DNA of 64,000 nt. Source: Candidatus Aminicenantes bacterium. Its GTDB lineage: Bacteria > Acidobacteriota > Aminicenantia > Aminicenantales > Saccharicenantaceae. Both the position numbers and the translations under genes were made by a program. The DNA lies in assembly GCA_034679465.1 (NCBI GenBank), contig JAXDAV010000010.1, positions 1,963-65,962 of the forward strand. The letters are read 5' to 3'. The notes beneath the pieces were generated by a model. It saw only the letters and a list, made by a program, of their open reading frames with translations, made no database searches and had not been told where the DNA came from. Below, in pieces: positions 8,847 to 22,252 of this stretch; position 1 is the stretch's first letter, and every line of letters starts with the position of its first letter.

Positions 8847-10418
8847 TCAGTGCTTGTGCAGGTCCTTGTGCATGATCTGGCGGATCTCGTGGAGCCGGTC
8901 GTGGGCCGGCAGGCCCGCCAGCCGCCTGTTCATGAACTCGTCGTTCTCGGCCTCGAGCCTCCGGGCCGTGTAGTCGATGACGCTCGGCGGGAAGACCCCG
9001 CCGCGCTCGTAGAGTCCGCGCTTCTCGAGGAGGACTCGGGCGGACTCGACGCAGCTCGGCGGCAGGACGGGCAGGCGGTCGAGCAGGGCTTTGTCGGCGA
9101 AAATGTTGCCCTTGACGTAGAGCTTCTCGGCCAACTCGAGGGACTGCGAGCCCCCGGACAGGGACTCGCCGCCGTCGAAGGCCCACCCGGCGGCCATGGC
9201 GATCCCGGCCAGGGTCAGATGGATGATGGCGCTGCCGTCGGGGCTGCGGATCTCGACCGTCTGGCGGCCGCCCCGCTCGTCGACGAAATCGACCTTCTCG
9301 GCTGGGTTGACCCGCCGGGCCAGGCCCGCGGCGCCCGTCCAGCCGAGCGGCACCCGGATGAGGACGCTGCGGTTGAGGTCGCTCCAGCAGATCCGCGTCG
9401 GCGCCTCCTGGTTGGGGACGAGGCGCAGATAGGCCGACGAGACCGTGTTGCCGAAGGCGGTCAGGGAATCGGCGTATTCGCATAGGCCGCCGATGAGCTT
9501 GCGGGCCTCGACCGACAGGCCGCCGTCCGGGCCGCGCATGAGGTTCCGTCCGTCCCTGGCCAGCTCGAGGTGGAAGTGGAGGCCGCTGCCGGCGATGCCC
9601 TCCTCGAGCTTGGGCGTGAACGTGGCGATGGCGCCGTGGCGGAAGGCGGTATTGCGGATGATCCAGCGGCCGAGGACGAGGTCGTCGGCCGCCTCCTCGA
9701 TGGGCCGGGTCGCGAACTCGATCTCGAGCTGCTCGGCCAGGCGGCCGGCGATCTCGGGGAGGTCGCTCTTGACGGCGTCGATGACGCCGTTCTCACCGTG
9801 GGCGTATTTGACCGCTCCGGTCGCCCGGGCGATGTGGCGGACCATCTCGTGGAGGATGGGGCCGCTCTTGCTGAACGGGGCGGAGCCGTGGTAGCCCCGG
9901 CCGCCCTCGACCGGGTAGGAGCGGTCGGCGGGCATCGTGAGCAGGAAGAACTCGAGCTCGCCCATGGCCTTGAGCTCGAGCCCGGAGACCTTGCGGAACA
10001 GGGCCGCGGCCCGGGACAGGATGCCGTCGTAGGTGAAGGACGCGGGCGTGCCGTCCTGGGCCAGATAGCGGCAGACGAAGTCGAGACTGCCCTCGTCGAA
10101 CGGGTTGAAGAAGGCGGAGCGGTAGAGGGGGACGATGTAGAGGTCGGAGAGCCCCATGTCCACCATGCCCTTGAAGAGCGACGAGCCGTCGGCCCGCTCG
10201 CCCTCGGCCAGGACGGACTCGATGTGATAGCGGTCGGTCACCGGGACGGTGAGCTCCTTGAGCTTGCCGTCGATCGCCAGATAGTGGAACGTGACCCGCT
10301 CGATCCTCTCCGACTCGATGACCTTCAGGATGTCGGCCCGGTCGAAGTCCGCGGCCGGCTTGTCCAGGAGGATCGAAAGGGGGTTGCCCAGGGCATAACG
10401 CGGGGTCTTGATCGCCAT
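8847..10418 (-). CDS. glutamine synthetase family protein
   Basis: 523 aa. GS catalytic-domain motifs GELEFFLL, GSGLHFHLEL and NRSVLIRVP. Confidence 0.8.
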   Translation of the reverse strand: MAIKTPRYALGNPLSILLDKPAADFDRADILKVIESERIERVTFHYLAIDGKLKELTVPVTDRYHIESVLAEGERADGSSLFKGMVDMGLSDLYIVPLYRSAFFNPFDEGSLDFVCRYLAQDGTPASFTYDGILSRAAALFRKVSGLELKAMGELEFFLLTMPADRSYPVEGGRGYHGSAPFSKSGPILHEMVRHIARATGAVKYAHGENGVIDAVKSDLPEIAGRLAEQLEIEFATRPIEEAADDLVLGRWIIRNTAFRHGAIATFTPKLEEGIAGSGLHFHLELARDGRNLMRGPDGGLSVEARKLIGGLCEYADSLTAFGNTVSSAYLRLVPNQEAPTRICWSDLNRSVLIRVPLGWTGAAGLARRVNPAEKVDFVDERGGRQTVEIRSPDGSAIIHLTLAGIAMAAGWAFDGGESLSGGSQSLELAEKLYVKGNIFADKALLDRLPVLPPSCVESARVLLEKRGLYERGGVFPPSVIDYTARRLEAENDEFMNRRLAGLPAHDRLHEIRQIMHKDLHKH

Positions 10419-10431
10419 CGCGCCACTCTCC

Positions 10432-11802
10432 TTAGCGGTGCTCGTCCCCCGAGGGGGACGCGTAGAGCAGATAGGGCCGGCGGAGGGCGGCGAAGGCCTC
10501 GAGGCCGGGCCGGATGTTGGCCAGGATCGTCGCCACCGTCTCCCCGGCCTCGAGGGACTTGCGGACCGAGGCCGTGCCCATGACCTTGTCGAAGTACGTG
10601 GGATGGAAGGCGAACTCGTCGGGGCACATCTCCCGCACGGTCCTGAGGATGTGGAGGACGGTCGCGACGGAGCGGAAGGCCGCCCGGTCGGTCACATGGA
10701 CCTGGCAGCCGCCGCAGAGCTCGCCCTGGAACTTGGAGAACCAGGGGGTGAACCAGGCCTCGCGGAACCGGACCCCGGGCAGGTCCAGGGCGTTCAGCCG
10801 CGCGGCCAGCTCGTGGCCGTCGATCCAGGGGGCGCCGAACAGCTCGAAGGGCTTCGTCGTGCCCCGGCCCTCGGACATGTTCGTGCCCTCGATCGCCACC
10901 AGCCCGGGGTAGACGACGGCCGTCTCGAGCGTCGGCATGTTCGGCGACGGGATGACCCACGGGAGCCCGGTCTCGTCGAACCACATCGTCCGGACCCAGC
11001 CCTCCATGGGCACGACCGTGAGCCTGGCCGCGCGGGCCAGGAACTTGTCGTTGAACAGCTGGGCCAGCTCCCCGGCCGTCATGCCGTGGCGCAGGGGGAT
11101 GGGAAAGAGCCCGATGAAGGAGCTGAGCTCGGGGTATTCGAGGATGGCCCCTTCCAGGTCGACGCCGTTGACCGGCGCCGGGCGGTCGAGGACGATGAAA
11201 TCGAGGCCGGCCTCGGCCGCGGCCTGCATGGCGTAGGCCATCGTGGCGACGTAGGTGTAGACGCGCGTCCCGACGTCCTGGATGTCGAAGACCAAAACGT
11301 CGACGCCCGTGACCATGGCCGCTTCCGGGACCTTGCCGGTTTCCTGGGTGTCGAACGAGCGCATGTATTCGTCGATGTTCCTGAGCATGCCCGGGGCGGG
11401 CTTCTGCGACTGCCCGTAGAGGCTGAAGACCGGGAGCCCGTAGGCTTCGTCGTAATAGAACGGCACGTATTCGCCGGCCTGGGCGTTGCCCCGGACGCCG
11501 TGCTCGGGACCGTAGAGGGCGACGAGGTCGATCGCCGGGTTCGAGCGAAAGAGCTCGATGGTCGAGCGGAGGTCCGCTCCCGTCCCGGTCGGGTTCGTGA
11601 TCAGGCCGACCCGCTTGCCCTTGACGAGATCGAGGTGCTTGGCCAGGAAAACCTCGACCCCGGGCTTGACCCGGACCGCGGCGTCCGGGGCCGGCGCGGC
11701 CGGGCGCTTCTCCGGCCCGGCGCATCCGGCCACGAACAGACCCAGCCCCAGGACCAGGCCGAGCCCCTTCCCGATCGTCGGAGGTACCGGTCGTATGCTC
11801 AT
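10432..11802 (-). CDS. DUF1343/NamZ-like exo-beta-N-acetylmuramidase family lipoprotein
   Basis: 456 aa. Lipobox LFVAGC. GLITNPTG and VFDIQDVGTRVYTY motifs are typical of DUF1343. Confidence 0.75.
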   Translation of the reverse strand: MSIRPVPPTIGKGLGLVLGLGLFVAGCAGPEKRPAAPAPDAAVRVKPGVEVFLAKHLDLVKGKRVGLITNPTGTGADLRSTIELFRSNPAIDLVALYGPEHGVRGNAQAGEYVPFYYDEAYGLPVFSLYGQSQKPAPGMLRNIDEYMRSFDTQETGKVPEAAMVTGVDVLVFDIQDVGTRVYTYVATMAYAMQAAAEAGLDFIVLDRPAPVNGVDLEGAILEYPELSSFIGLFPIPLRHGMTAGELAQLFNDKFLARAARLTVVPMEGWVRTMWFDETGLPWVIPSPNMPTLETAVVYPGLVAIEGTNMSEGRGTTKPFELFGAPWIDGHELAARLNALDLPGVRFREAWFTPWFSKFQGELCGGCQVHVTDRAAFRSVATVLHILRTVREMCPDEFAFHPTYFDKVMGTASVRKSLEAGETVATILANIRPGLEAFAALRRPYLLYASPSGDEHR

Positions 11803-11877
11803 GCTCGTGTCCTTTCGCGCCGCTCGTTGCCGCCCGCTCAGGATAACAAGACCGGCGCGGCCGAGTCAAACCGGCTC

Positions 11878-11906
11878 TTGATTCCCCCCTGGGAAAAGAT
11901 TATAAA
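11878..11906 (+). promoter_or_regulatory. sigma70-like promoter of the phosphatase/kinase-like/TLC operon
   Basis: TTGATT (11878-11883), 17-nt spacer, TATAAA (11901-11906), 13 nt before the ATG at 11920. Confidence 0.4.
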
Positions 11907-11919
11907 GGAACGGGAAACA

Positions 11920-13773
11920 ATGCCTAGCCGCAGACACGGTCGTCGGGGGAAGCATCTGGTCTTCGGGGCCCTGGCCGCCCTGGCCTTGGCTCTCCTGGTC
12001 CGCCTCGCCCCGGCCGCCGAGATCCCCTTCGAATGGACGGGCGTCGACCGCGTCGTGGCCGTCGCCGACGTTCACGGCGACTATGAGCGGTTCGTCTACA
12101 TCCTCGCCCACCCCCAGGTGGGGCTCATCGACAACGACCTCCGCTGGATCGGCGGCCGGGCCCATCTCGTCCAGCTCGGCGACGTCGCGGACCGGGGCCC
12201 CCACGCCCGCCGGATCTTCGAGATGCTCATGCGCCTCGAGAAGGAGGCCGCGGCCGCCGGCGGGATGGTCCACGTGTTGCTCGGGAACCACGAGGAGATG
12301 AACATCACCGGGATCGCCCTGGACTACCCGGGCTACGTCCTCCCCGAGCAGTTCGTGTCTTTTCTGCCCGAGGACTTCCGGAGGGAGAAGGAGTTCGAGT
12401 ACGTCAGGTCGCTCCCGGCCGGGGACCGGAAGAGAGCCGAGGCCGAAGGCCTGGACATCTTCGCCGATTTCGGGTTGCACAATTTCTGGCGGAAGGTCAT
12501 CGAGGTCAAGGATCCCGACGCCCGCCGGGCCTACGTCCTGGGCTTCAACGAGGCCGTCGGCGACTGGCTCGTCCGGAAGAACGCCATCATCAGGATCAAC
12601 GGGGTCATCTATGTCCACGGCGGCGTCGGCGAAGGCCTCTCCCGATGGCCGCTGGGCGAGATCAACGCCGTCATGCGGGCCGAGCTCGAGTACTTCCAGG
12701 GCGTCGTGCGCGACCCGAAGCGGGCGTCCCAGGACTTCAAGCCGAGGCTCGTCTACGACCCCGAAAGCCCGCTCTGGTCCCGCGGCCTGGCCGAGAGCGG
12801 CCAGGCGACCCAGGCCGACGTCGACAGGATCCTGGCCAATCTGGGGGCCAAGGCCATGGTCGTCGGCCACAGCTTCTTCAGCTATCGGGGCGGCCGGAGC
12901 CAGGTCGTCTCGAAGGACCACGTGGCCCGCTTCGAGGACAAGGTCTGGGTCATGGACACGGGCATCTCCGGGAGCTACGGCGGCGTCCCGTCGGCCCTCA
13001 TCTACGAGAACGGCGGGTTTCGGCTCTGGGGCGAGAGCGAGGAGGTCGCGGCCCAGAGCGGCATCAGGCCGCCCCCCCTCAAACCGCTGACGCGCCGGGA
13101 GATGGAAACGTTCCTCCGCACGGCCTCGATCACCGGCCGCGGTCCCGGGCCGCCCGGGCGGACCGACGCCTGGCTCCTGACCATGGCCTCGGGGGACGTC
13201 GTCATCCCGGCCCTCTTCAAGTACATCGACCGCCGGCGGCCCGAGCCGCTTGCCGACAGCTACCGCTACGAGCTCGCCGCCTACGCCCTCAGCAAGTACC
13301 TCGACGTCGGCTTCGTCCCGCCGATCGTCGAACGGACCGTCGAGGGCGTCCCGGGGGCGGTCCAGGTCTTCGTCACCGACGCCATGTCGGAGGCGGAGCG
13401 CAAGGACAAGAGAGCCGAGCCGCCCGATCCCGGGGAATTCGACCGGGCCATGGCCGACCTCCTGGTCTTCCTGGGCCTGGCCTACGACGACTGCCACCGC
13501 GACGCGGACACCCTGATCAGCCTGGACACGGGCCGGGTCTACCGGGTCGATTTTTCCGAGGCCTTCGCGCCGGCGAAGGGCCTCCCCGCCCGCTGCCCCA
13601 TCCTCCGGTGCTCGAGCCTGCTCTACCGCAAGCTCCAGGGGTGGAACGACCGGACCGTCGCCGATTACGTGGGCCGGTACCTCAATCGGGAGGAGACCGC
13701 CGCGCTCAACGCGCGCCGGCGGGCGATCGTCCGGGCGATCAAGATCGCGGGGGAGAGGAACGTCCTGTTTTGA
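11920..13773 (+). CDS. exported PPP/calcineurin-like metallophosphatase fused to a divergent PI3/PI4-kinase-like domain
   Basis: The real start is ATG 11920, inside the 1121-aa track ORF. Signal peptide HLVFGALAALALALLVRLAPAAE. Phosphatase motifs ADVHGD, GDVADRG, GNHE, VHGG, VVGHS. The C-terminal ~230 aa are paralogous to the next two small proteins (IPALFKY, YELAAYALSKYLDVGFVPP, DDCHRDADTLI, RVDFSEAF, end NVLF). Confidence 0.75.
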   Translation: MPSRRHGRRGKHLVFGALAALALALLVRLAPAAEIPFEWTGVDRVVAVADVHGDYERFVYILAHPQVGLIDNDLRWIGGRAHLVQLGDVADRGPHARRIFEMLMRLEKEAAAAGGMVHVLLGNHEEMNITGIALDYPGYVLPEQFVSFLPEDFRREKEFEYVRSLPAGDRKRAEAEGLDIFADFGLHNFWRKVIEVKDPDARRAYVLGFNEAVGDWLVRKNAIIRINGVIYVHGGVGEGLSRWPLGEINAVMRAELEYFQGVVRDPKRASQDFKPRLVYDPESPLWSRGLAESGQATQADVDRILANLGAKAMVVGHSFFSYRGGRSQVVSKDHVARFEDKVWVMDTGISGSYGGVPSALIYENGGFRLWGESEEVAAQSGIRPPPLKPLTRREMETFLRTASITGRGPGPPGRTDAWLLTMASGDVVIPALFKYIDRRRPEPLADSYRYELAAYALSKYLDVGFVPPIVERTVEGVPGAVQVFVTDAMSEAERKDKRAEPPDPGEFDRAMADLLVFLGLAYDDCHRDADTLISLDTGRVYRVDFSEAFAPAKGLPARCPILRCSSLLYRKLQGWNDRTVADYVGRYLNREETAALNARRRAIVRAIKIAGERNVLF

Positions 13774-13799
13774 CGGCTGACGCGGGAAGGAGGGAGGCG

Positions 13800-15257
13800 A
13801 TGTCCAGACCGTCGGACGACCCGGCCGCCCTCCCGGGCGCGGCCCGCTATAATCTGGGCTACAGGTTCCTGCGGCTGTTCGCCGACATCCGGCCCGGAGA
13901 GGCGTCCAAGGCCCTGCTGCTGGCCCTGAACATCTTCCTCCTCCTCCTGGCCTATTACATCCTCAAGCCCCTGCGCGAGTCCCTGCTCCTCGTCGACAAG
14001 AGCTCCCCCGTCATCAAGAGCATGCTCGGCGGCGCCCAGGCCGTCCTGTTCGTCTTCGTCATCAAGGGCTTCAGCCGCCTGGCCTCCAAGGTCCCCCGCC
14101 ACACCCTGATCACCTGGACAACGTCCTTCTTCATCTCCAACCTGGTCGTGTTCTATGTCCTCCACGCCGGCGGCCTGGCCGTCAAGCCGATGGGCATCCT
14201 GTTCTTCATCTGGGTCGGGATCTTCAACTATTTCGTCATCGCCCAGTTCTGGGGCTTCGCCAACGACCTCTATGCCGACGAGGCCGGCAAGCGGACCTTC
14301 CCGCTCGTCGCCCTCGGCGCGACCCTGGGGGGCCTCATCGCCACCCTGCCGTTCATGAAGCGGCTCCGGGACGTCCTCGGCGGCCGTTGGGAATTCAAGC
14401 TCATGCTCATCGCGGGCCTCGTGCTCGCCCTCTGCATCGTCCTGGCCCGCCTCATCCACCGCCGCGACGTCCGCAAGACCCGCCTGGACCGGGAGAACGG
14501 CGTGGCCGGCGCCGAGGAGAAGGCCAAGGTCCAGGAACAGCCGCTCGAGGCCAGCGGCGGCTTCAGGCTCGTCTTCAAGAGCCGCTATCTCTTCCTCATC
14601 GCGCTCATGATCGGTCTCTACAATTTCGTCAACGCGACCGGGGAGTTCATCATCTCCACGGTCACGGTCGATCATTCGATCGAGGCCGCGGACACGGCGG
14701 CGGCCGCGCCGGCGGCCGGACAGAGCGAAGCGGACGCCCCGCTCCGGCAAACGGAGAGCAAGGCCATCCACAACGCCTTCATGGACTATCAGCTCCTGAC
14801 CAATCTGATCGCCCTCGTCATCCAGCTCCTCCTCGTCTCGAGGATCTTCAAGTGGGTCGGGGTCGGGGGGGCGCTCCTCTTCCTGCCCATCCTGGCCCTC
14901 GGCGGCTACGCGCTCATCTCGTTCGGGGCGACCGTCGTCCTGGTCCGCTGGGTCAAGGCCCTGGAGAACGGCACGGACTACTCCCTCCAGAACACGACCA
15001 AGGCGGCGCTGTTCCTGGTCACCCGGCGCGAGGAAAAGTACAAAGCCAAGGCGGCCATCGACACGTTCTTCGTCCGCGGCGGGGACACGCTCTCGGCCCT
15101 GGCCGTGCTCGTCGGGACGCAGATGCTGGGGCTCCGGATCGAGCGCTACGCGATCCTCAATGTCGCCGCGGTCGCCCTCCTTCTCGTCATCTGCGTCAGG
15201 ATCATCGCCGCCTACAAGAGGAGGAAGGAGCGGATGGACCGGGACGAAGGTCTATGA
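13800..15257 (+). CDS. TLC/Npt-like nucleotide (ATP/ADP translocase family) carrier
   Basis: ATG 13800 lies after GGAAGGAGGGAGG. 485 aa and polytopic. The N-terminal LLLALNIFLLLLAYYILKPLRESLLL matches the conserved first helix of TLC-type carriers. The 5' part of the 870-aa track ORF is an out-of-context extension. Confidence 0.65.
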   Translation: MSRPSDDPAALPGAARYNLGYRFLRLFADIRPGEASKALLLALNIFLLLLAYYILKPLRESLLLVDKSSPVIKSMLGGAQAVLFVFVIKGFSRLASKVPRHTLITWTTSFFISNLVVFYVLHAGGLAVKPMGILFFIWVGIFNYFVIAQFWGFANDLYADEAGKRTFPLVALGATLGGLIATLPFMKRLRDVLGGRWEFKLMLIAGLVLALCIVLARLIHRRDVRKTRLDRENGVAGAEEKAKVQEQPLEASGGFRLVFKSRYLFLIALMIGLYNFVNATGEFIISTVTVDHSIEAADTAAAAPAAGQSEADAPLRQTESKAIHNAFMDYQLLTNLIALVIQLLLVSRIFKWVGVGGALLFLPILALGGYALISFGATVVLVRWVKALENGTDYSLQNTTKAALFLVTRREEKYKAKAAIDTFFVRGGDTLSALAVLVGTQMLGLRIERYAILNVAAVALLLVICVRIIAAYKRRKERMDRDEGL

Positions 15258-15294
15258 TTCGGCCGGGCCGTTGGCCTTGAGGGGAGGACCACCC

Positions 15295-16131
15295 ATGAGA
15301 CGCATCCTGGCCTTCGTTGTCTCGGCCTTGGCTTTGGGGGCCGCGCCGCCCGCCGGGCTGGCCCAGTTCCTGCCCGAGGAGATCGCCCTGAGGCCGGCCC
15401 TGGAGGAGTTCCTCCTGACGGCCGAGATCGTCCGCTTCGAGGAGATCGGCGAGGGGGTGACCAAGCCCTACAAGCTCTTCCTCCGGAAGGACGGGGTCGA
15501 GCGCCCGGCCGCCTGGAAGGACCCGAAGGGCCTGCAGGGCGGGTTCCTCGAGGGCTGGCAGTACGAGATCGCCGCCTATCGCCTCGACAAGCTCATCGGC
15601 CTGAACATGGTCCCCCCGGCCGTCGAGCGCGAATTCCGGGGCAAGCCGGGGGCCCTCGTCCTCTGGGCCGAGTGCGAATACAGCCTGCTCAAGGTCATGG
15701 AGCGGGGCATCGAGATCCCCGAAGAGGCCGGGGACCGGACCGACAAGATGAAGTACCTGACCCGGGCCTGGGACAGCCTCATCGCCAACGAGGACCGGAC
15801 CCAGCAGAACGTCCTCTACACCGGGGACTGGCGGACGATCCTCATCGACCATTCCCGGGCCTTCCGCTGCGGCGGCAAGTTCTCCGAGAAGCTGATGTTC
15901 GGCCGCAACGGCATCCAGAAGACCGCCCAGGGGGCCCCGCTCGCCTTCCGCCGCCTGCCGCGCGGATTCGTCGAGAGGATCAGGGCCCTGACCGTCGGGA
16001 GCGTCCGCAAGGCCGTGGGCCAGACCCTCACCGACCGAGAGATCAAGGCCGTCATCGTCCGCCGCGACCTCCTGCTCAAGGAGATCGGCCGGATGATCGA
16101 AGAGCAGGGCGAAGAGGCGGTGCTCTATTGA
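15295..16131 (+). CDS. exported PI3/PI4-kinase-like (protein-kinase-like fold) domain protein
   Basis: Signal peptide MRRILAFVVSALALGAAPPAGLAQ. Motifs AAWKD (candidate Lys), YEIAAYRLDKLIGLNMVPP, IANEDRTQQNVL and ILIDHSRAF. It ends in AVLY. Confidence 0.6.
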   Translation: MRRILAFVVSALALGAAPPAGLAQFLPEEIALRPALEEFLLTAEIVRFEEIGEGVTKPYKLFLRKDGVERPAAWKDPKGLQGGFLEGWQYEIAAYRLDKLIGLNMVPPAVEREFRGKPGALVLWAECEYSLLKVMERGIEIPEEAGDRTDKMKYLTRAWDSLIANEDRTQQNVLYTGDWRTILIDHSRAFRCGGKFSEKLMFGRNGIQKTAQGAPLAFRRLPRGFVERIRALTVGSVRKAVGQTLTDREIKAVIVRRDLLLKEIGRMIEEQGEEAVLY

Positions 16132-16139
16132 AGGCCAAG

Positions 16140-17030
16140 ATGAAGGCGAAGACGGGAGCGGCGCTGGCGGTCCTCGCCGCGCTCCTGCCGCTCGGCGCCC
16201 TCCTTCTGGCCTGCGTCGACGCCGGCGGCCCCGCGGCCGGCGGCCCGGACGGACCGCCTCCCCTGCAGTTCCTCCCCGAGGAGATCGGGCGGCGGGCCGA
16301 GTGGGAGGAGTTCCTGTCCAAGGCCGAGATCCTCGAAAGAGAGAGCAGGCAGATCAGGGGGTCCGAGGCCGTGACCTCGCCCTGGGTCCTCATGCTCGAG
16401 CTCGGCGGGGTCAGGCACAGGGCCCTCTGGAAGAACGCGCAGGGCCGCATGGGCGGCTACTGGGAAGGCTGGGCCTACGAGGTGGCCGCCTACCGCCTCG
16501 ACAAGCACCTCGGGCTGGGCATGGTCCCCCCCACCGTCGAGCGCCGCTTCCGCGGCGACCGGGGGTCGTGCCAGTACTGGGTCGACGACACGATGTCGCT
16601 CAAGGACAAGGAGGCCAAGCGGATCAAGACGCCTCCGGCCAAGGTCCCGGGCTGGAACCGGGCGACCTACAAACAGCGGTTCTTCGACAACCTCATCGCC
16701 AACGAGGACCGGCACTCGAACCAGGTCCTGATCACCCAGGACTGGCGGATGATCCTCATCGATCACTCCCGGTCCTTCCGGACGGCGGGCAAGTTCGTCC
16801 GCGGCCTCATCTTCTCGGCCAAGAGCCCCGCGGGGCCGATGCTCATGAGCGAGCTGCCGCGCCCGCTCGTCGAGAAGCTCCGGGCCCTGGACGCCGCCGC
16901 GCTCAGGTCCGCGGTCGGCGAGTACCTCACCGGCGAGGAGATCGGCGCCGTCCTCGTCCGGCGGGAGCTCATCCTGGCGGAGATCGATCGGCTGGTGAGG
17001 GCCAACGGGGAGGACAAGGTCCTCTACTGA
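16140..17030 (+). CDS. PI3/PI4-kinase-like domain lipoprotein (paralog of 15295..16131)
   Basis: Lipoprotein signal MKAKTGAALAVLAALLPLGALLLAC. Motifs ALWKN, YEVAAYRLDKHLGLGMVPP, IANEDRHSNQVL and ILIDHSRSF. It ends in KVLY. Confidence 0.6.
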   Translation: MKAKTGAALAVLAALLPLGALLLACVDAGGPAAGGPDGPPPLQFLPEEIGRRAEWEEFLSKAEILERESRQIRGSEAVTSPWVLMLELGGVRHRALWKNAQGRMGGYWEGWAYEVAAYRLDKHLGLGMVPPTVERRFRGDRGSCQYWVDDTMSLKDKEAKRIKTPPAKVPGWNRATYKQRFFDNLIANEDRHSNQVLITQDWRMILIDHSRSFRTAGKFVRGLIFSAKSPAGPMLMSELPRPLVEKLRALDAAALRSAVGEYLTGEEIGAVLVRRELILAEIDRLVRANGEDKVLY

Positions 17031-17031
17031 T

Positions 17032-17049
17032 CAGCCCGGGCTATTCATA
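17032..17049. repeat. 18-nt fragment identical to the core of repeat element A1
   Basis: CAGCCCGGGCTATTCATA at 17032-17049 is identical to 36305-36322. It spans the convergent gap and the last 3 codons plus stop of the RsbW-like gene. Confidence 0.7.
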
Positions 17050-17478
17050 GGACGTGAGGGCAAGGTCCTTGCGGACCGTCAGGACGTTTTGCCCGTCCGT
17101 CCGCCGGTAGGTCAGCCCGTCCATCAGGGTCTTGTAGAAATAGACGCCCAGGCCGCCGGGGGTGCCGCGGCGCCGCTGGACCGTCAGGTCGGGGTCTTTT
17201 GTCCGGACCGGATCGAAGGGGACGCCCCGGTCCCGGACCTCGATGAAGAGCGATTCCCCGCTCCGCCAGATCCGCACGGCCATGTCGCCCGGCCGGCCCT
17301 GGGGATAGGCGTAGCGGACGATGTTGACGCAGATCTCGTGGAGGGCCAGCTCGATCTTGAACCGGTCCTGCTCGTCGAAGGGCAGGCCGGCGATGGCCTC
17401 CCGCAGGAAGCCCCGGAGGCGGTCGATCTCCTCGAGCCGGGCCGGGACGCGGAGCTCCTTGACCTCCGGCTCGCTCAC
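17041..17478 (-). CDS. RsbW/SpoIIAB-like anti-sigma regulatory kinase (HATPase_c)
   Basis: 145 aa. ELALHEICVNIVRYAY (N-box region), FIEVRDRGVPFD (G1) and GGLGVYFYKTLMD (G2). Confidence 0.8.
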   Translation of the reverse strand: MSEPEVKELRVPARLEEIDRLRGFLREAIAGLPFDEQDRFKIELALHEICVNIVRYAYPQGRPGDMAVRIWRSGESLFIEVRDRGVPFDPVRTKDPDLTVQRRRGTPGGLGVYFYKTLMDGLTYRRTDGQNVLTVRKDLALTSYE

Positions 17479-17500
17479 GCTCGTCCCCTGTCCCCGGCCC

Positions 17501-19177
17501 TCAAGGGTTCCGCTTGACGATGACCAGGGTCATGTCGTCGCCGGCCTCGGAGCAGCCGCTGAAGGCGAGGACGTCCTCGAAGATCCGGTCCATGATGGCC
17601 CGGGCCGGCAGGCCGCGGAGCTCCCGGACTTTGTCCCCCAGGCGCCCGTCGCCGTACTCCTCGCTCTCGCCCCTGCGGCTCTCGACGATCCCGTCGGTGT
17701 AGAAGCAGACGATGTCTCCGGGGCGGAGGGCGACGGTCCGCCGGCCGTAGGCCTGGTCCGGGAGCATCCCCAGGCAGAGCCCGGTGCTCTCGAGGGCCTG
17801 GACCCGGCCCTGGGCCCCGACCAGCAGGGGCGGATTGTGACCGGCGTTGACGAAGGTCGCCTCGTCCCTGCTCCGGTCGATGATGGCCAGGAAAAAGGAG
17901 ATGAAGAGGTGGCTGTCCGAGCTGACATGGACGAAGTCGTTGAGCTTGGCCGCGAGCTCGCCGAGATCGACGGCGCCCGGGAACCTCTCGTGCAGGGCCC
18001 CGCGCAGCGAGGCCATGAGCAGGGAGGCGCTGACCCCGACGCCCGAGACGTCGGCGACGACGACGGCCAGCCGGTCCTTGTCGATGGGGATATAATCGTA
18101 GTAGTCCCCGCCGACGCGCCGGCAGGCCCGGGCGCTGCCGCTGATCTCGTAGGGGGCGAAATCCGGTTCGGCGCGGGGCAGGAAGTTCTTCTGGATCTGC
18201 ACGGCCAGGGCCATCTCGCGCTCGTACTGGAGGGCCTTGATGGACTCGTCGATGAGCCGGGCGTTCTCGATCTTGACGGCGGCCAGGTTGGCCAGGAGCG
18301 TCAGCAGCCGCAGGTCGTCCTCGCCGAATTGCTCCAGGAGCGAGACCCGGTCGCAGTAGACGAGGCCGATGATGTCCTGGTTGTTCCAGAGCGGGACGCA
18401 CATGGCCGAGTGGATCTGGGCCTGGACGACGCTCGCCTGGCCCCGGAGCCCCTCCTCGGCCTGGATGTCGGAGATGAGGATGGCCGAGTTCCGTTCCAGG
18501 GCCTCGCGGACGATCGTCTGGCTGACGAAGATGCTCTGGGTCCGCAGGGCCGCGTTCTGGACGCGGACGACCTTGGGCTCGAGGGCCTGGGTGGACTCGT
18601 TCTTGAGCATCAGGACGCCCCGGTCCATGGGCAGGTTCTGGATGAGCACGTCCATGATGTGGTCGAGCAGCTTCTCCAGCGGCATGTGATAGATGAGGGC
18701 CTGGCTGACCGCCCCCATGACCGCCATGATCTTCTGGTCCTGCCTCAGCCGCTCCATGTCGACCCCGCCCGCGGGGGTCTTCAGGATGCCCGTGGCCGGG
18801 GGCTTCTTGAGGATGTCCTTGACCTGGATGATCGTGTTGGAGCTGTGGGTGAAGGTCGTCCCCTCGACGGTCTCGACGGAGGGCTGGAAGTCCTTGTCGA
18901 AATAGAACCGCGTCGAGCCGACGAGGACCTCGTCGCCGCGGGCCAGGTCGATCTCGCCGCTGACGCGGCGGCCGTTGGCGAAGGTGCCGTTCTTGCTGCC
19001 CTGGTCGACCAGGGCGTAGCCCCGGTCGGTCGGGACGATGATGGCATGACAGCCCGAGCTGAACTGGTCGGACAGGACGATGTCGTTGGTCGAGGCCCGG
19101 CCGATCCGGACCGGGTCGCGGCCGAGGGGATAGGTCGAGGGCTCGCCCGATTTCGGATAGATATACAGGATGGCCAT
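17501..19177 (-). CDS. FHA-GAF-PP2C (SpoIIE/RsbU-type) phosphatase
   Basis: 558 aa. N-terminal FHA (RIGRASTNDIVLSD..SSGCHAII..GSKNGTFANG). Central GAF-like region. C-terminal SpoIIE motifs GGDYYDY and VADVSGVGVSASLLMA. Confidence 0.85.
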   Translation of the reverse strand: MAILYIYPKSGEPSTYPLGRDPVRIGRASTNDIVLSDQFSSGCHAIIVPTDRGYALVDQGSKNGTFANGRRVSGEIDLARGDEVLVGSTRFYFDKDFQPSVETVEGTTFTHSSNTIIQVKDILKKPPATGILKTPAGGVDMERLRQDQKIMAVMGAVSQALIYHMPLEKLLDHIMDVLIQNLPMDRGVLMLKNESTQALEPKVVRVQNAALRTQSIFVSQTIVREALERNSAILISDIQAEEGLRGQASVVQAQIHSAMCVPLWNNQDIIGLVYCDRVSLLEQFGEDDLRLLTLLANLAAVKIENARLIDESIKALQYEREMALAVQIQKNFLPRAEPDFAPYEISGSARACRRVGGDYYDYIPIDKDRLAVVVADVSGVGVSASLLMASLRGALHERFPGAVDLGELAAKLNDFVHVSSDSHLFISFFLAIIDRSRDEATFVNAGHNPPLLVGAQGRVQALESTGLCLGMLPDQAYGRRTVALRPGDIVCFYTDGIVESRRGESEEYGDGRLGDKVRELRGLPARAIMDRIFEDVLAFSGCSEAGDDMTLVIVKRNP

Positions 19178-19215
19178 GGGCGATTCCTCTGCCTCATTCT
19201 AAAGGAGTTGAAGGG

Positions 19216-21765
19216 TCATTTCAACCTCAGGGCCCGCTTCAGCCGGAGGACCCGTTCGCCGTCCGGCAGGTCCTCGATGAGGGGGAAGAGAAGCTCCTTG
19301 TCCTCCCTGTCGAGGAGGTTGTCGAGGTGCTCGAGGGCGTAGTCGACCGACTTGGGCGTCCCCTGGAGGATGTGCTGGTAATCGTTGATGATGTCCTCCC
19401 GGGGATAGAGGAGCGTCAGCAGGTCGAAGACGCGGCGGAGCCGGATGATGAGCGCCGCCCGGGCCTCGTCCGGCGGGCCGGGCGGGCCGAGGACGGCGTC
19501 GCAGGCCTTCCGGATCAGGAAGCGGAGCTCGGGCCGGAGGTCGCGCTCGCGGAACCGGACCCGGGCGCGCTCCGCCCGGATCTTGTAGAGCGCGTCGATG
19601 AGGGCCTGCTCCATGTCCTCGCGCCGGCGGGCCAGCTCGGCGACCAGGATGTCGGCGGCCTTCTGAGACCCGATCCGGGCCAGGACCTCCGGGACGGCCC
19701 GGCGCACCTCCAGGGGCTCGTCCGCCGAGCGGAGCAGCGGGGCGAGGCGGCCCACGATCTCGGGGCCGTAGGCCGCCAGGGCCGTTTGGGCCTCGACGAT
19801 CGTCATGGGGTTGGCCAGGTGCCGCAGGATGATCGGCACGTGCTCGGGCCGCCGGTGGACGGAGGCGCCGTTCAGGGCGTACAGGACGACCTCGACCGAG
19901 GCGTCCTGGAGGAGCCGGGCCAGGGCGTCCATCGTCGGGGGACTCGGGGCCATCCGGCAGATGCTGTTGGCGGCCTCGATCCGCTCGACCTCGGAGGGCG
20001 AGTCGATGATCCGGCCGAGGCTCTCGTCCATGATCTTCTGGTAGGCGGGCAGGAGATAGATGAGGTCGATCTCCTTCTGGAACTCGGCGTCGGTGATGGT
20101 CTCCTCGAGGCCCGGATAGAGGCCGCCCGCGGCGCCGACGTCGAACAGGGCGTCCATGGCCCGGGCCTTGAGCTCGTTGCGCTTGATCCCCAACAGCTCC
20201 TGGAGCTCGGGGGTCAGGTTCTTCGACCGGACCAGGTTGAAGAGGTTCATGTAGTAGAGGGTCGTGCTTCGCTCGCGGCTCTGGACGGCGTCGAAGACCT
20301 CGCGGACGAGCTTCTCGTCGAGGTGGGCGTCGATGACGGTCCGGCCCTCCTGCCAGATCCGGCCGAGGTCCTTCTTCAGGACGGCCGGGTATTCCCGATA
20401 GACCGACCGGGTCAGGACCAGCCAGAGGGCGAGAAAGGCGAGGACGACGAGACCCGTCTCGCGGACGACGGACAGCGGATCGAGCCGGTACTCGAACACC
20501 CTCCAGGCGTTGAGGACGAGCCAGAGGACCGCGGCCGTTCCGGTCGCGATCTTGTTGACGAGGACGTCGATGAACACCTTGGCCCGGTACTTGACGGACG
20601 CGGAGACGGGGATGTAGAGGAGCTCGCGCACGGACTGGCCGAGGGTGTTGTCGAACATCTTGTCCCCGCCGCGGGCGACCCAGGCCCAGGCCAGCAGGAG
20701 GCCGAGGGGAATGACGAACACGGTCGCCGAGACGGCCAGGAGAAAGGCCGGGGCGACGGCCATGGCCCAGCGGATGCCGTAGGACTTGAGGACGCGGCCG
20801 GTCGTGAGCAGGTGGAAGGCCGCGGAAACGGCCAGGATCACCAGGAAGAAGAGGGCGATGAACGAGGTCCGGGCCTGGCCGCTCGTGAAAAGGCTCATGA
20901 CGACCCACTTGAACTGGTAGTTGATGAGCGAGCCGGCGATGATGGCCGAGGCCACCATTGCCGCGAGCCGGCGCAGATAGCGGTCGTTCCGGACGGCCCG
21001 GAAGCTCTCCCAGGCGCCGACCTTGGCGGGCACGGCCAGGCGCTCGTCGCCGGCGACGGCGTCGGTCCGCCGCTTCTCGGCGTAGACGGCGTTGACCGCG
21101 GCGATGGCCAGGGCGAGCAGGAACGGACAGACGAGGAGGAGGTCCTCCGGCGGGATGAGCCGGGCGACGGTCATGAGGGCGGCCGCGGCCGCGCCGGCGA
21201 TGCCGCCGAAGAGCCCGCCGGTGACGAAGAGGCCGACCAGCCGCTTGGCCTCATGGGGGTCGAAGGCGTCGTTGACCGCGATCCAGAACTGGGTCACGGA
21301 CATGGCGATGAAGATGTCGGCCCAGAAGCAGAAGGCGATGACGAAGACCGGGAAATGGTCCCAGATCATCATGCGGGCCCAGAGCAGGAAGAAGACCCCC
21401 GAGGAGTCGGCGACCGGGGTTGAGTACAGGGACTTCTGGTGGACGTCGAAGATGAACCAGAAGACGAGGAGGCCGGAGATGAAGAACAGGAGCGAGGCCG
21501 TGAGGTAGGTCCGGCGGGGCAGGCGGTCGAGGAGGCGGGCGTTGACGGCCACGACGAGGCCGATGAGCAGGGCCGTGGCCAGGTCGGCGAAGGGCCACCA
21601 GCCGGGCCTGGCGCCGATCAGGAAGCTCTCTTTGACCGGCTTGACGATGTAGAAGGTGGCGGTGATCAGGAAGAAGAGCGCCGACAGGGCCAGGGCGGCC
21701 CGGGCCTCATGGCCGCGGACGTCGCCCAGGCGCTTCAGGATCCGTTCGAGCCGGCCGTCGGCCAA
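19216..21765 (-). CDS. TLC-like carrier fused to a C-terminal HEAT/ARM-like helical repeat domain
   Basis: 849 aa. The N-terminal FFLITATFYIVKPVKESFLIG helix motif resembles that of 13800..15257 and is followed by a polytopic membrane region. The last ~350 aa are soluble and alpha-helical with a repeat character (LARLLQDASVEVVLYALN.., ILRHLANP.., VPEVLARIGSQKAADILV..). Confidence 0.65.
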   Translation of the reverse strand: MADGRLERILKRLGDVRGHEARAALALSALFFLITATFYIVKPVKESFLIGARPGWWPFADLATALLIGLVVAVNARLLDRLPRRTYLTASLLFFISGLLVFWFIFDVHQKSLYSTPVADSSGVFFLLWARMMIWDHFPVFVIAFCFWADIFIAMSVTQFWIAVNDAFDPHEAKRLVGLFVTGGLFGGIAGAAAAALMTVARLIPPEDLLLVCPFLLALAIAAVNAVYAEKRRTDAVAGDERLAVPAKVGAWESFRAVRNDRYLRRLAAMVASAIIAGSLINYQFKWVVMSLFTSGQARTSFIALFFLVILAVSAAFHLLTTGRVLKSYGIRWAMAVAPAFLLAVSATVFVIPLGLLLAWAWVARGGDKMFDNTLGQSVRELLYIPVSASVKYRAKVFIDVLVNKIATGTAAVLWLVLNAWRVFEYRLDPLSVVRETGLVVLAFLALWLVLTRSVYREYPAVLKKDLGRIWQEGRTVIDAHLDEKLVREVFDAVQSRERSTTLYYMNLFNLVRSKNLTPELQELLGIKRNELKARAMDALFDVGAAGGLYPGLEETITDAEFQKEIDLIYLLPAYQKIMDESLGRIIDSPSEVERIEAANSICRMAPSPPTMDALARLLQDASVEVVLYALNGASVHRRPEHVPIILRHLANPMTIVEAQTALAAYGPEIVGRLAPLLRSADEPLEVRRAVPEVLARIGSQKAADILVAELARRREDMEQALIDALYKIRAERARVRFRERDLRPELRFLIRKACDAVLGPPGPPDEARAALIIRLRRVFDLLTLLYPREDIINDYQHILQGTPKSVDYALEHLDNLLDREDKELLFPLIEDLPDGERVLRLKRALRLK

Positions 21766-21793
21766 TCGACCCCCTCGTCAGGCCCGGGCGAGC

Positions 21794-22141
21794 TCAAGCC
21801 CTGCCGAAGCTCTCCAGGGCCCGGTCGCAGTCCTCATGGATGTCGAGGACCTTGTCCAGCATCGTGATCTTGAAGATGAGAAGGAGCTTGTCGGAGATCC
21901 GGCAGAGCTTGAGCTTGCCGCCAAGGTGCTGGGTCGAGATGTAGGAGGCCAGGATCTGGCCCACGCCGAAGCTGTCGATGAACTCCACGCCGCCGAGGTC
22001 GAGCAGCAGGTTCCTCCGCCCCCGGTCGAGCTGGGCCTCGACGAGGCTGTGGAGGGTCTCCTGGATGGTGTCGGCGCGGCGGATTTCGCCTTGGATGTCG
22101 AAGATGACGATGTTGCCCAGCTCGCGCGTCTTGATGACCAT
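21794..22141 (-). CDS. STAS-domain anti-sigma-factor antagonist (RsbV/SpoIIAA-like)
   Basis: ATG at 22141 (MVIKTRELGNIVIFDIQGEI..). LLLDLGGVEFIDSFGVGQIL contains the conserved phosphorylatable DSxG Ser context. Confidence 0.8.
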   Translation of the reverse strand: MVIKTRELGNIVIFDIQGEIRRADTIQETLHSLVEAQLDRGRRNLLLDLGGVEFIDSFGVGQILASYISTQHLGGKLKLCRISDKLLLIFKITMLDKVLDIHEDCDRALESFGRA

Positions 22142-22252
22142 GGTGTCGGCTATGTGTTTATCAGAAGGGCCGGCCAAAGTCAATTGAAGGGGTCAAACCC
22201 ACTTGACGCGAAGGACCCTCCTGGGAGAAAAGATTACTGGAAAGGAGCCGCC

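Follow-up and report, generated by a model that had tools for sequence, protein, structure and literature searches.

A gene cluster of an Aminicenantes bacterium combining predicted exported Fam20/PI4KII-like kinases, a PPP phosphatase and carriers of the ATP/ADP-exchange family

Introduction

A 64,000-nucleotide stretch of the genome of a Candidatus Aminicenantes bacterium (GenBank assembly GCA_034679465.1, contig JAXDAV010000010.1, positions 1,963 to 65,962) carries a cluster of four genes, G1 to G4, in which predicted exported kinase-like proteins and a phosphatase are encoded together with a membrane carrier. This whole stretch is called the window below, and coordinates refer to it. The kinase-like domain is most fittingly assigned to the Fam20/PI4KII-like kinases, as a new bacterial branch, and it belongs to a large unannotated family. 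Genes for the phosphatase, the kinases and a carrier of the TLC family are held together by selection across distant lineages. We propose that the cluster constitutes an extracytoplasmic, i.e. periplasmic, phosphorylation-dephosphorylation module that is supplied with ATP by the carrier, a proposal that in our judgement stands an even chance of being correct. The individual parts come from known superfamilies; the system as a whole is without a described bacterial counterpart. The source of the window, which has a G+C content of about 68%, is an uncultured sediment bacterium of the Aminicenantes, a free-living group.

Results

G1 (11920..13773, plus strand) encodes a protein of 617 amino acids with a signal peptide, a Shewanella-like PPP phosphatase domain (approximately residues 35-370) and a Fam20/PI4KII-like domain (approximately residues 390-617). 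It is followed on the same strand by G2 (13800..15257), a TLC/NTT-family carrier of 485 amino acids without a HEAT domain, G3 (15295..16131), a predicted exported Fam20/PI4KII-like kinase of 278 amino acids with a Sec-type signal, and G4 (16140..17030), a predicted exported kinase of the same type with 296 amino acids and a lipoprotein signal (LLAC). The four co-directional genes are separated by 26, 37 and 8 nucleotides, respectively, and both these gaps and the gene positions agree with the original prediction, as read off the open reading frames (ORFs). In the window, no extra copies of the domains of G1-G4 were found except for a second carrier at 19216-21765.

The three soluble products share a paralogous domain with like ends, as had been predicted. 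G3 and G4 are 47% identical (E-value 6e-75), residues 392-617 of G1 are 33% identical to G4 (3e-21), and G1 and G3 are 29% identical (7e-12); the C-terminus reads NVLF in G1, and AVLY and KVLY in the other two paralogues. The motifs quoted in the original prediction are all present, with the reservation that the catalytic loop of G4, IANEDRHSNQVL, has its Asn one position before the one in the claimed pattern. As single sequences the proteins gave merely faint Pfam matches (HipA_2, Fam20C and FAM198). The family is sizeable, i.e. 2,403 clusters at 50% identity were found with an E-value of at most 1e-3, and 1,085 with an E-value of at most 1e-10; nearly all members are annotated as "hypothetical".

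A family profile built from 92 diverse members was searched against the PDB. The matches were headed by FAM20A (1.8e-14), followed by the xylosylkinase Fam20B (1e-10), Fam20C (about 1e-9), ceFam20 (2.8e-7) and PI4KII-alpha (1.5e-6). The alignment spans the AE(I/V)AA(F/Y).LD..LG...VPP motif, the catalytic loop N.DRH and the D-x-x-(K/R)-x-F motif, and it continues along the C-terminal helices as far as the terminal ...GE..V(L/I)(Y/V); this accounts for the like ends of the three paralogues. The AlphaFold2 model of G4 (mean predicted local distance difference test, pLDDT, 89.3; predicted template modelling score, pTM, 0.83) led to the same neighbours: in a Foldseek search Fam20C, Fam20A and Fam20B ranked at the top (E-values of about 1e-8, TM-scores of about 0.6 on the query); behind them stood type II PI4-kinases and, after these, class I/III PI3-kinases. 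The coverage of the Fam20 structures is partial, with TM-scores of 0.42-0.50 when normalised to the target. Profile and fold searches thus both bear out the kinase-like fold of the original prediction; its placement there in the type II PI4-kinase-like branch is correct and can be made more precise as Fam20/PI4KII-like. Among the nearest relatives of the family are a kinase of proteins, one of sugars and one of lipids.

Four residues are invariant or nearly so across the family, in G4 numbering Lys98, Glu114, Asp190 of the N.DR loop and Asp208 of the IDHS motif. Another acidic residue lies five positions ahead of Glu114, and the two form an acid-x4-Glu pair; Fam20 has two functionally important acids with the same spacing (PMC5865150). 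The Fam20-type catalytic set, i.e. the Lys, the acid-x4-Glu pair, the Asp of N.DRH and the metal-binding Asp, is complete in both G3 and G4, and G3 retains it in the form of the Lys, an E-x4-E pair, an NEDR loop and IDHSRAF. Judged by these residues, G3 and G4 look catalytically competent.

The proteins fall below the Pfam cut-offs of both these families. With the Fam20 model PF06702, G4 scored 12 bits against a cut-off of 26.8 and G3 gave no match; two distant relatives narrowly passed (29.4 and 27.2 bits). With PF00454 (PI3_PI4_kinase) there was no match at an E-value of 1 or below for G1, G3 or G4, weak matches occurred in 62 of the 92 family members (best 2e-7), and precomputed PF00454 assignments exist for a few relatives. 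Three other families were considered and rejected, namely HipA, CotH and SCO1664, for which the scores were either absent or under the cut-offs: the SCO1664 model TIGR03843 gave 47.7, 28.1 and 18.5 bits, all below its cut-off of 172.4, HipA_2 gave faint matches to the kinase-like proteins of the window (E-value about 0.1), and no HipA or CotH chain was found among the PDB profile matches or the top Foldseek matches. We note that the kinase-like domain also occurs in other architectures (P0182, P0213, P0140 and P0153). Among these are a fusion to a PD40/TolB-like propeller, an occurrence inside a 1,611-residue protein of the Bacteriovoracaceae, and tandem copies (two after a phosphatase in P0153).

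The N-terminal two thirds of G1 are a Shewanella-like (Shelph) PPP phosphatase. Residues 44-200 match Metallophos (4e-9), and the domain is closest to the Shewanella cold-active protein-tyrosine phosphatase (1v73/2z72/2zbm), both in sequence (E-value 2.5e-31) and in fold, where it is the best match (1.5e-17). The PPP motifs, defined according to PMC535813, read ADVHG, GDVADRG, GNHE and MDTG. As in the Shelphs, the PPP signatures are accompanied by the bacterial (I/L/V)D(S/T)G-type motif; unlike them, G1 has an Ala for Gly in the first motif (ADVHG instead of GDxHG), is fused to a kinase-fold domain and lies in an operon with a carrier. The distant phosphatase-kinase fusions have the canonical GDVHG and IDTG. 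The original assignment of this domain to a PPP/ApaH-type phosphatase therefore stands as to the PPP signature, but not as to ApaH: the matches to ApaH-type and Rhizobiales-like phosphatases were marginal, and both sequence and fold point to the Shelphs.

That the first copy of the kinase-like domain is divergent and fused to a metallophosphatase was likewise confirmed. In the AlphaFold2 model of G1 (pLDDT 85) the C-terminal domain (13087-13773, plus strand) has a fold that matches PI4KII/Fam20. The Fam20 catalytic set is incomplete in this domain, in that its loop, YDDC...D(T/I)L, has a Cys where the catalytic Asp is expected; the Lys, the acid-x4-Glu pair and VDFSEAF, i.e. the residues of the nucleotide pocket, are retained. 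The same Cys is seen in loci L008-L079 and is kept in G1 orthologues down to about 35% identity, and by this pattern of conservation the site is a maintained variant, not a product of decay. Because a conserved Cys replaces the catalytic Asp, the domain is probably non-catalytic, i.e. a pseudokinase. Phosphatase-kinase fusions of other lineages retain the canonical N.DRN.GN and IDH(S/T)RAF.

The non-canonical loop YDDC...DTL of G1, being conserved, suggests a retained but altered site, and it is one of the points that would fit a chemistry other than phosphorylation. On such an explanation the exported nucleotide would be used for e.g. AMPylation or glutamylation, and the PPP domain would remove the modification or have some other substrate. 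Nucleotidylation was the alternative named in the original prediction itself, and PMC7948968 refers to atypical kinase folds that carry out other chemistries. G3 and G4, however, have the canonical Fam20-type Asp/Asn/Asp set for phosphotransfer, and the partner enzyme is a phosphatase; we consider this explanation improbable.

The membership of G2 and of the second carrier in the TLC/NTT family of ATP/ADP counter-exchange carriers is secure by sequence comparison, in agreement with the TLC/Npt-like carrier that had been predicted for G2. G2 scored 67.7 bits with PF03219 (TLC; gathering cut-off 21). The second carrier (19216..21765, minus strand) is a TLC-HEAT fusion of 849 amino acids (TLC 1.6e-15, 57.4 bits; HEAT_2 1e-7) that is 25% identical to G2. 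A search of the whole PDB with a profile that combined G2 with TLC-HEAT N-domains gave full-length matches to the solved ATP/ADP carriers 9j3n (3.6e-39) and 9j3j, the plastid NTT1 (1.8e-31), and at an E-value of 0.01 or below the profile matched nothing else. Compared at the level of motifs, the carriers have (I/V)L(K/R)..(K/R)(E/D), FWGFAN, EAKR, YSL and K.KAKAAID in common with the solved NTTs. The orthologues of G2, 76-90% identical, are the best-conserved proteins of the cluster, and in pipeline annotations they appear as ATP:ADP antiporter or NTP/NDP exchange transporter.

Signal peptides were called by a heuristic that considers a basic N-terminus, a hydrophobic 10-mer and a lipobox. G1, G3 and G4 each start with basic residues ahead of a strongly hydrophobic stretch; the hydrophobic N-terminus of G3 ends in ...GLAQ, and G4 has the lipobox LLAC with the Cys at residue 25. 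The pattern is conserved throughout the family. The hydrophobic stretch is found in all 73 close G4 homologues that start with Met (the lipobox in 54 out of 73), and a hydrophobic N-terminal signal in 95 out of 115 diverse family representatives; in an alignment of closer relatives (A2) every row has a hydrophobic leader ending in A-x-A-Q. Where the C-terminal domain of G1 is split off as a standalone pseudokinase gene, the product has its own hydrophobic N-terminus in 32 out of 33 copies. Moreover, in one relative the fusion partner is a PD40 propeller of the TolB type, a periplasmic module. The Sec and lipoprotein signals that had been predicted for the three soluble products are thus supported by the heuristic calls and by conservation across the family, and G3 and G4 are probably exported, G4 with a lipid anchor. 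A cytoplasmic location of G1, G3 and G4 was rejected, given the conservation of the signals and their renewed acquisition by genes that split off. As a separate observation, in G1 orthologues the hydrophobic stretch is preceded by a (S/T)RR(K/Y)GR-like motif (11920-11960 in the window), so that the metal-containing phosphatase could be exported by Tat instead of Sec.

The linkage of the genes was followed in other genomes. A locus search with the narrow alignment A2 returned Aminicenantes alone; more distant lineages were reached via representative proteins and via a metagenome scan seeded with distant fusions. In 82 Aminicenantes loci, and down to about 55% identity, the genes stand in the order G1-G2-G3-G4 with an RsbW-like gene in convergent orientation after them. 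The order of G1-G4 survives the loss of the outer neighbours, a glutamine synthetase and a NamZ-like gene, as well as the move of the PP2C and TLC-HEAT genes to the other side. The glutamine synthetase and NamZ, being syntenic in close relatives alone, were rejected as parts of the system. With rare exceptions, G1 is a fusion only in relatives at about 48% identity or more; in the other loci the phosphatase (about 350-390 amino acids) and the pseudokinase (about 260 amino acids) are adjacent separate genes with their own signals (L015, L021, L033, L173 and about 30 others).

Two distant phosphatase-kinase fusions, found in wholly different contexts, directly adjoin a TLC-HEAT gene, encoding a TLC-HEAT-cNMP protein in one case (L086) and TLC-HEAT in the other (L087/L088). 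The metagenome scan seeded with such fusions gave 80 loci of a soil-type clade (G+C 55-71%), 17 of which have at least 3 kb on both sides and are therefore informative. In 16 out of these 17 a TLC-HEAT gene lies within 2.5 kb of the phosphatase gene, and in all 17 a kinase-family gene lies within 5 kb; it is the TLC-HEAT type of carrier that accompanies the phosphatase and kinase genes here. At least five gene orders occur in this clade, including PPP-TLC-KIN, KIN-PPP-TLC and a PPP~KIN fusion followed by TLC. When the ORFs of 23 loci from both lineages were clustered, the phosphatase/kinase and TLC families alone were common to nearly all loci, and every other real gene occurred in at most about six. 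Fusion and splitting of the parts is seen within lineages as well as between them, which is classical evidence for functional coupling. The synteny of the genes holds far beyond the close relatives, through rearrangement, fusion and fission. Of the conditions under which the original prediction would have failed, all those open to computation were checked, and none spoke against it.

It could be argued that the neighbourhood is merely inherited and carries no functional coupling, given that the loci within each clade are related and that close relatives share long synteny, including the unrelated glutamine synthetase and NamZ genes. We hold this to be very improbable. The three kinds of genes persist while the flanks change, they occur in several orders and as fusions or split genes, and they recur together in two lineages whose proteins are merely 25-45% identical; chance or purely inherited adjacency as such was rejected in view of the varied gene orders and the replaced flanks.

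The phosphatase gene is almost always the immediate upstream neighbour of the carrier. This adjacency, the tightest in the cluster, would also suit the scavenging of nucleotides or phosphate, whereby the exported phosphatase would trim nucleotides or phosphoesters, the TLC carrier would import the products, and the kinase-like proteins would be accessories that bind or process nucleotides. Some bacterial PPPs hydrolyse dinucleoside polyphosphates (PMC535813), and all characterised NTTs import (PMC5381601). The phosphatase, however, is nearest to a protein-tyrosine phosphatase and not to ApaH, carriers of the MFS type work without binding proteins, and the full phosphotransfer site of G3 and G4 is strongly conserved, yet would be left without an external phosphate donor under scavenging, which we regard as unlikely.

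Downstream of G4 and in the opposite direction lies an operon (17041-22183, minus strand) in which a partner-switching module of STAS, PP2C and RsbW-like genes surrounds the TLC-HEAT gene; it stands beside G1-G4 throughout the Aminicenantes. Its first gene encodes a STAS-domain protein of the anti-anti-sigma type (21794..22183; Pfam STAS 1.1e-14) and is found at the same position in L001, L002 and L173. The second carrier is followed by an FHA-GAF-PP2C (SpoIIE) phosphatase (17501..19177, assigned by Pfam), whose gene remains in the cluster and is upstream of G1 in more distant loci, and by an RsbW-like anti-sigma-type Ser kinase (17041..17478; HATPase_c_2, Pfam 6.8e-27), whose gene adjoins G4 in nearly all Aminicenantes loci. 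The TLC-HEAT carrier and the partner-switching module belong to the conserved neighbourhood of G1-G4, and the minus-strand module suggests a phospho-dependent gating of the carrier. In L173 (GCA_046760445.1) the whole cluster, i.e. STAS, TLC-HEAT, PP2C, a split G1, TLC, two kinases and RsbW, lies on one contig; the metagenome-assembled genome is labelled Candidatus Hydrothermarchaeota archaeon, probably by an error of binning or labelling.

The heavy decoration of the carriers with HEAT and cNMP-binding domains and with STAS/RsbW/PP2C modules would also be compatible with a purely regulatory link. Here the exported kinase and phosphatase would control the carrier, through its periplasmic loops or through a partner, and the cargo would be unrelated to the donor of the kinases, which would obtain it otherwise or act after release from the cell. 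That there are orphan kinases without carriers agrees with this. Such a link provides no phosphate donor outside the cytoplasm, however, and regulatory modules that sit in the cytoplasm have no need of an input from the periplasm; the probability of this explanation appears low to us.

Upstream of G1 there is a promoter-like box, TTGATT-N17-TATAAA (11878..11906, plus strand), with TTGATT at 11878-11883 and TATAAA at 11901-11906, read directly from the sequence as had been predicted. A consensus promoter scan of the window did not list this box because the scan demands a T as the sixth letter of the -10 hexamer. About 12 high-GC Aminicenantes loci have the same box in the equivalent position before their G1 orthologue, and in a background of 68% G+C this recurrence is good evidence of a real promoter, beyond chance. 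Divergently from G1, a NamZ-like exo-beta-N-acetylmuramidase with a lipoprotein-type N-terminus (...FVAGC) is encoded at 10432-11802 on the minus strand. Its promoter, TTGACT-18-TATCCT (11869 to 11840, minus strand), is conserved among relatives, and the sequence GAGTCAA...AGGATA(A/T)CA that is kept in relatives is the reverse complement of it. The 117-nucleotide intergenic region between NamZ and G1 thus carries two conserved promoters back to back. Very long antisense or out-of-frame shadow ORFs overlap the real genes (10408-13773, 11866-13497 and others, up to 1,121 amino acids). They are the usual artefact of high G+C content and no genes, and the same artefact gave rise to spurious "conserved" ORF clusters in the comparison across loci.

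Discussion

We infer that the nucleotide is moved out of the cytoplasm to feed the kinases. Characterised NTTs are obligate exchangers of ATP against ADP and phosphate. In our proposal the high cytoplasmic ATP/ADP ratio would set the direction of the carrier, i.e. ATP would move to the periplasm, and ADP from the kinase reaction, possibly together with phosphate from the phosphatase reaction, would return inward through it. An ATP-consuming enzyme and a phosphatase outside the cytoplasm would generate exactly the two counter-substrates of an NTT, ADP and phosphate, and the position of the phosphatase gene right upstream of the carrier fits this picture. G3 and G4 would phosphorylate a substrate in the envelope, be it a protein, a glycan or a lipid, and the phosphatase of G1 would reverse this. 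The pseudokinase of G1 may dock or activate G3 and G4, by analogy with the Fam20A-Fam20C pair. The costly export of nucleotide would be gated from the cytoplasm by the HEAT domain, by the STAS/RsbW/PP2C module in the present locus, and by the cNMP-binding domain in L086.

Several points speak against this proposal. ATP in the periplasm would escape through porins, and the NTT family transports NAD and other nucleotides too. The signal-peptide calls are heuristic. G2 scored 59.5 bits with TIGR00769, the NCBIfam equivalog of NTP/NDP exchange transporters, for which the cut-off is 387.2; G2 and TLC-HEAT are just about 25% identical, and both are distant from characterised NTTs. No carrier is found near four single-domain kinase relatives, nor near two fusions, so the coupling is either clade-dependent or the carrier is encoded elsewhere in these genomes. 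The characterised NTTs, all of them importers, serve parasites or plastids (PMC5381601). Finally, TLC-HEAT proteins occur in cyanobacteria as well (PMC5381601), from which Shelph phosphatases are reported to be absent (PMC535813), and therefore the carrier has roles beyond the module.

Two further explanations were set aside. Host-directed effector kinases are unlikely in view of the free-living sediment lineage, the lipoprotein anchor and the linkage to an inner-membrane carrier, and a periplasmic synthesis of ATP by reverse action of the kinases was rejected on thermodynamic reasoning.

In both profile and fold, the closest solved relatives of the bacterial family are the animal proteins Fam20C, Fam20B and the pseudokinase Fam20A. 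The likeness extends to the AE(I/V)AA(F/Y).LD..LG...VPP, N.DRH and D(N/H).(K/R).F motifs, the acid-x4-Glu pair and the C-terminal helices. Like Fam20, the bacterial kinases bear signals, are predicted to act outside the cytosol and would need ATP in a non-cytosolic compartment, and as with Fam20A and Fam20C a predicted active kinase is paired with a paralogous pseudokinase. On the other hand, the bacterial proteins are about 250 amino acids long, without the extra segments of Fam20, and their genes are clustered with those of a phosphatase and a carrier. PI4KII alpha/beta, second-best in profile (1.5e-6) and in fold, are lipid kinases of the cytosolic face without signal peptides, unlike the present family. 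A kinome survey describes FAM20 as specific to eukaryotes or Metazoa (PMC9758233), prokaryotic members are unmentioned in a Fam20 review and a paper on Fam20 evolution, and a full-text literature search gave no account of exported Fam20-like kinases in bacteria or of kinases that use ATP in the periplasm.

G2 resembles the TLC/NTT carriers, i.e. Tlc/Npt of Rickettsia and Chlamydia and the plastid NTT1, in Pfam membership, full-length alignment and hallmark motifs. It differs from the characterised ones in that the sequences are highly divergent, the host is free-living with no host cytosol as a nucleotide source, and the proposed net direction is outward. The neighbouring protein of 849 amino acids has the NTT-HEAT architecture, which is widespread and whose function is stated to be unknown; NTT and NTT-HEAT proteins of free-living bacteria, one Aminicenantes sequence among them, have been catalogued with the same statement (PMC5381601).

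The nearest analogue of the whole system is found in eukaryotes, where luminal kinases of the Golgi and the endoplasmic reticulum (ER) are fed by an ATP/ADP exchanger. Textbook envelope biology assumes that ATP is absent beyond the inner membrane, and the known periplasmic phosphate transfers use lipid-linked donors; the donor of LpxT is undecaprenyl pyrophosphate, ATP being unavailable in the periplasm. By its action on lipid A, LpxT is a known case of phosphate being transferred at the periplasmic face of the inner membrane in bacteria (PMC2229476). Unlike LpxT, the present system would bring in a nucleotide donor. Our results suggest that some bacteria phosphorylate targets outside the cytoplasm with nucleotide exported for the purpose. 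More broadly, we put forward, as a possibility that falls somewhat short of even, that free-living bacteria possess a counterpart of eukaryotic secretory-pathway phosphorylation, in which periplasmic Fam20-type kinases and a PPP phosphatase would run on NTT-exported ATP.

As a candidate for reversible phosphorylation driven by ATP in the envelope of bacteria, the cluster is concrete and testable, and since its components are small and expressible, experiments are feasible although the organism is uncultured. It also offers a first functional context for the TLC/NTT-HEAT proteins of free-living bacteria, which have had no assigned role since the catalogue of 2017. If the proposal is true, the working assumption that there are no ATP-dependent periplasmic kinases would be overturned, and the NTT and NTT-HEAT carriers of free-living bacteria would gain a first function. 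A bacterial origin of the Fam20-like kinases would likewise be indicated, and perhaps the transporters of "energy parasites" began as carriers that ran outward.

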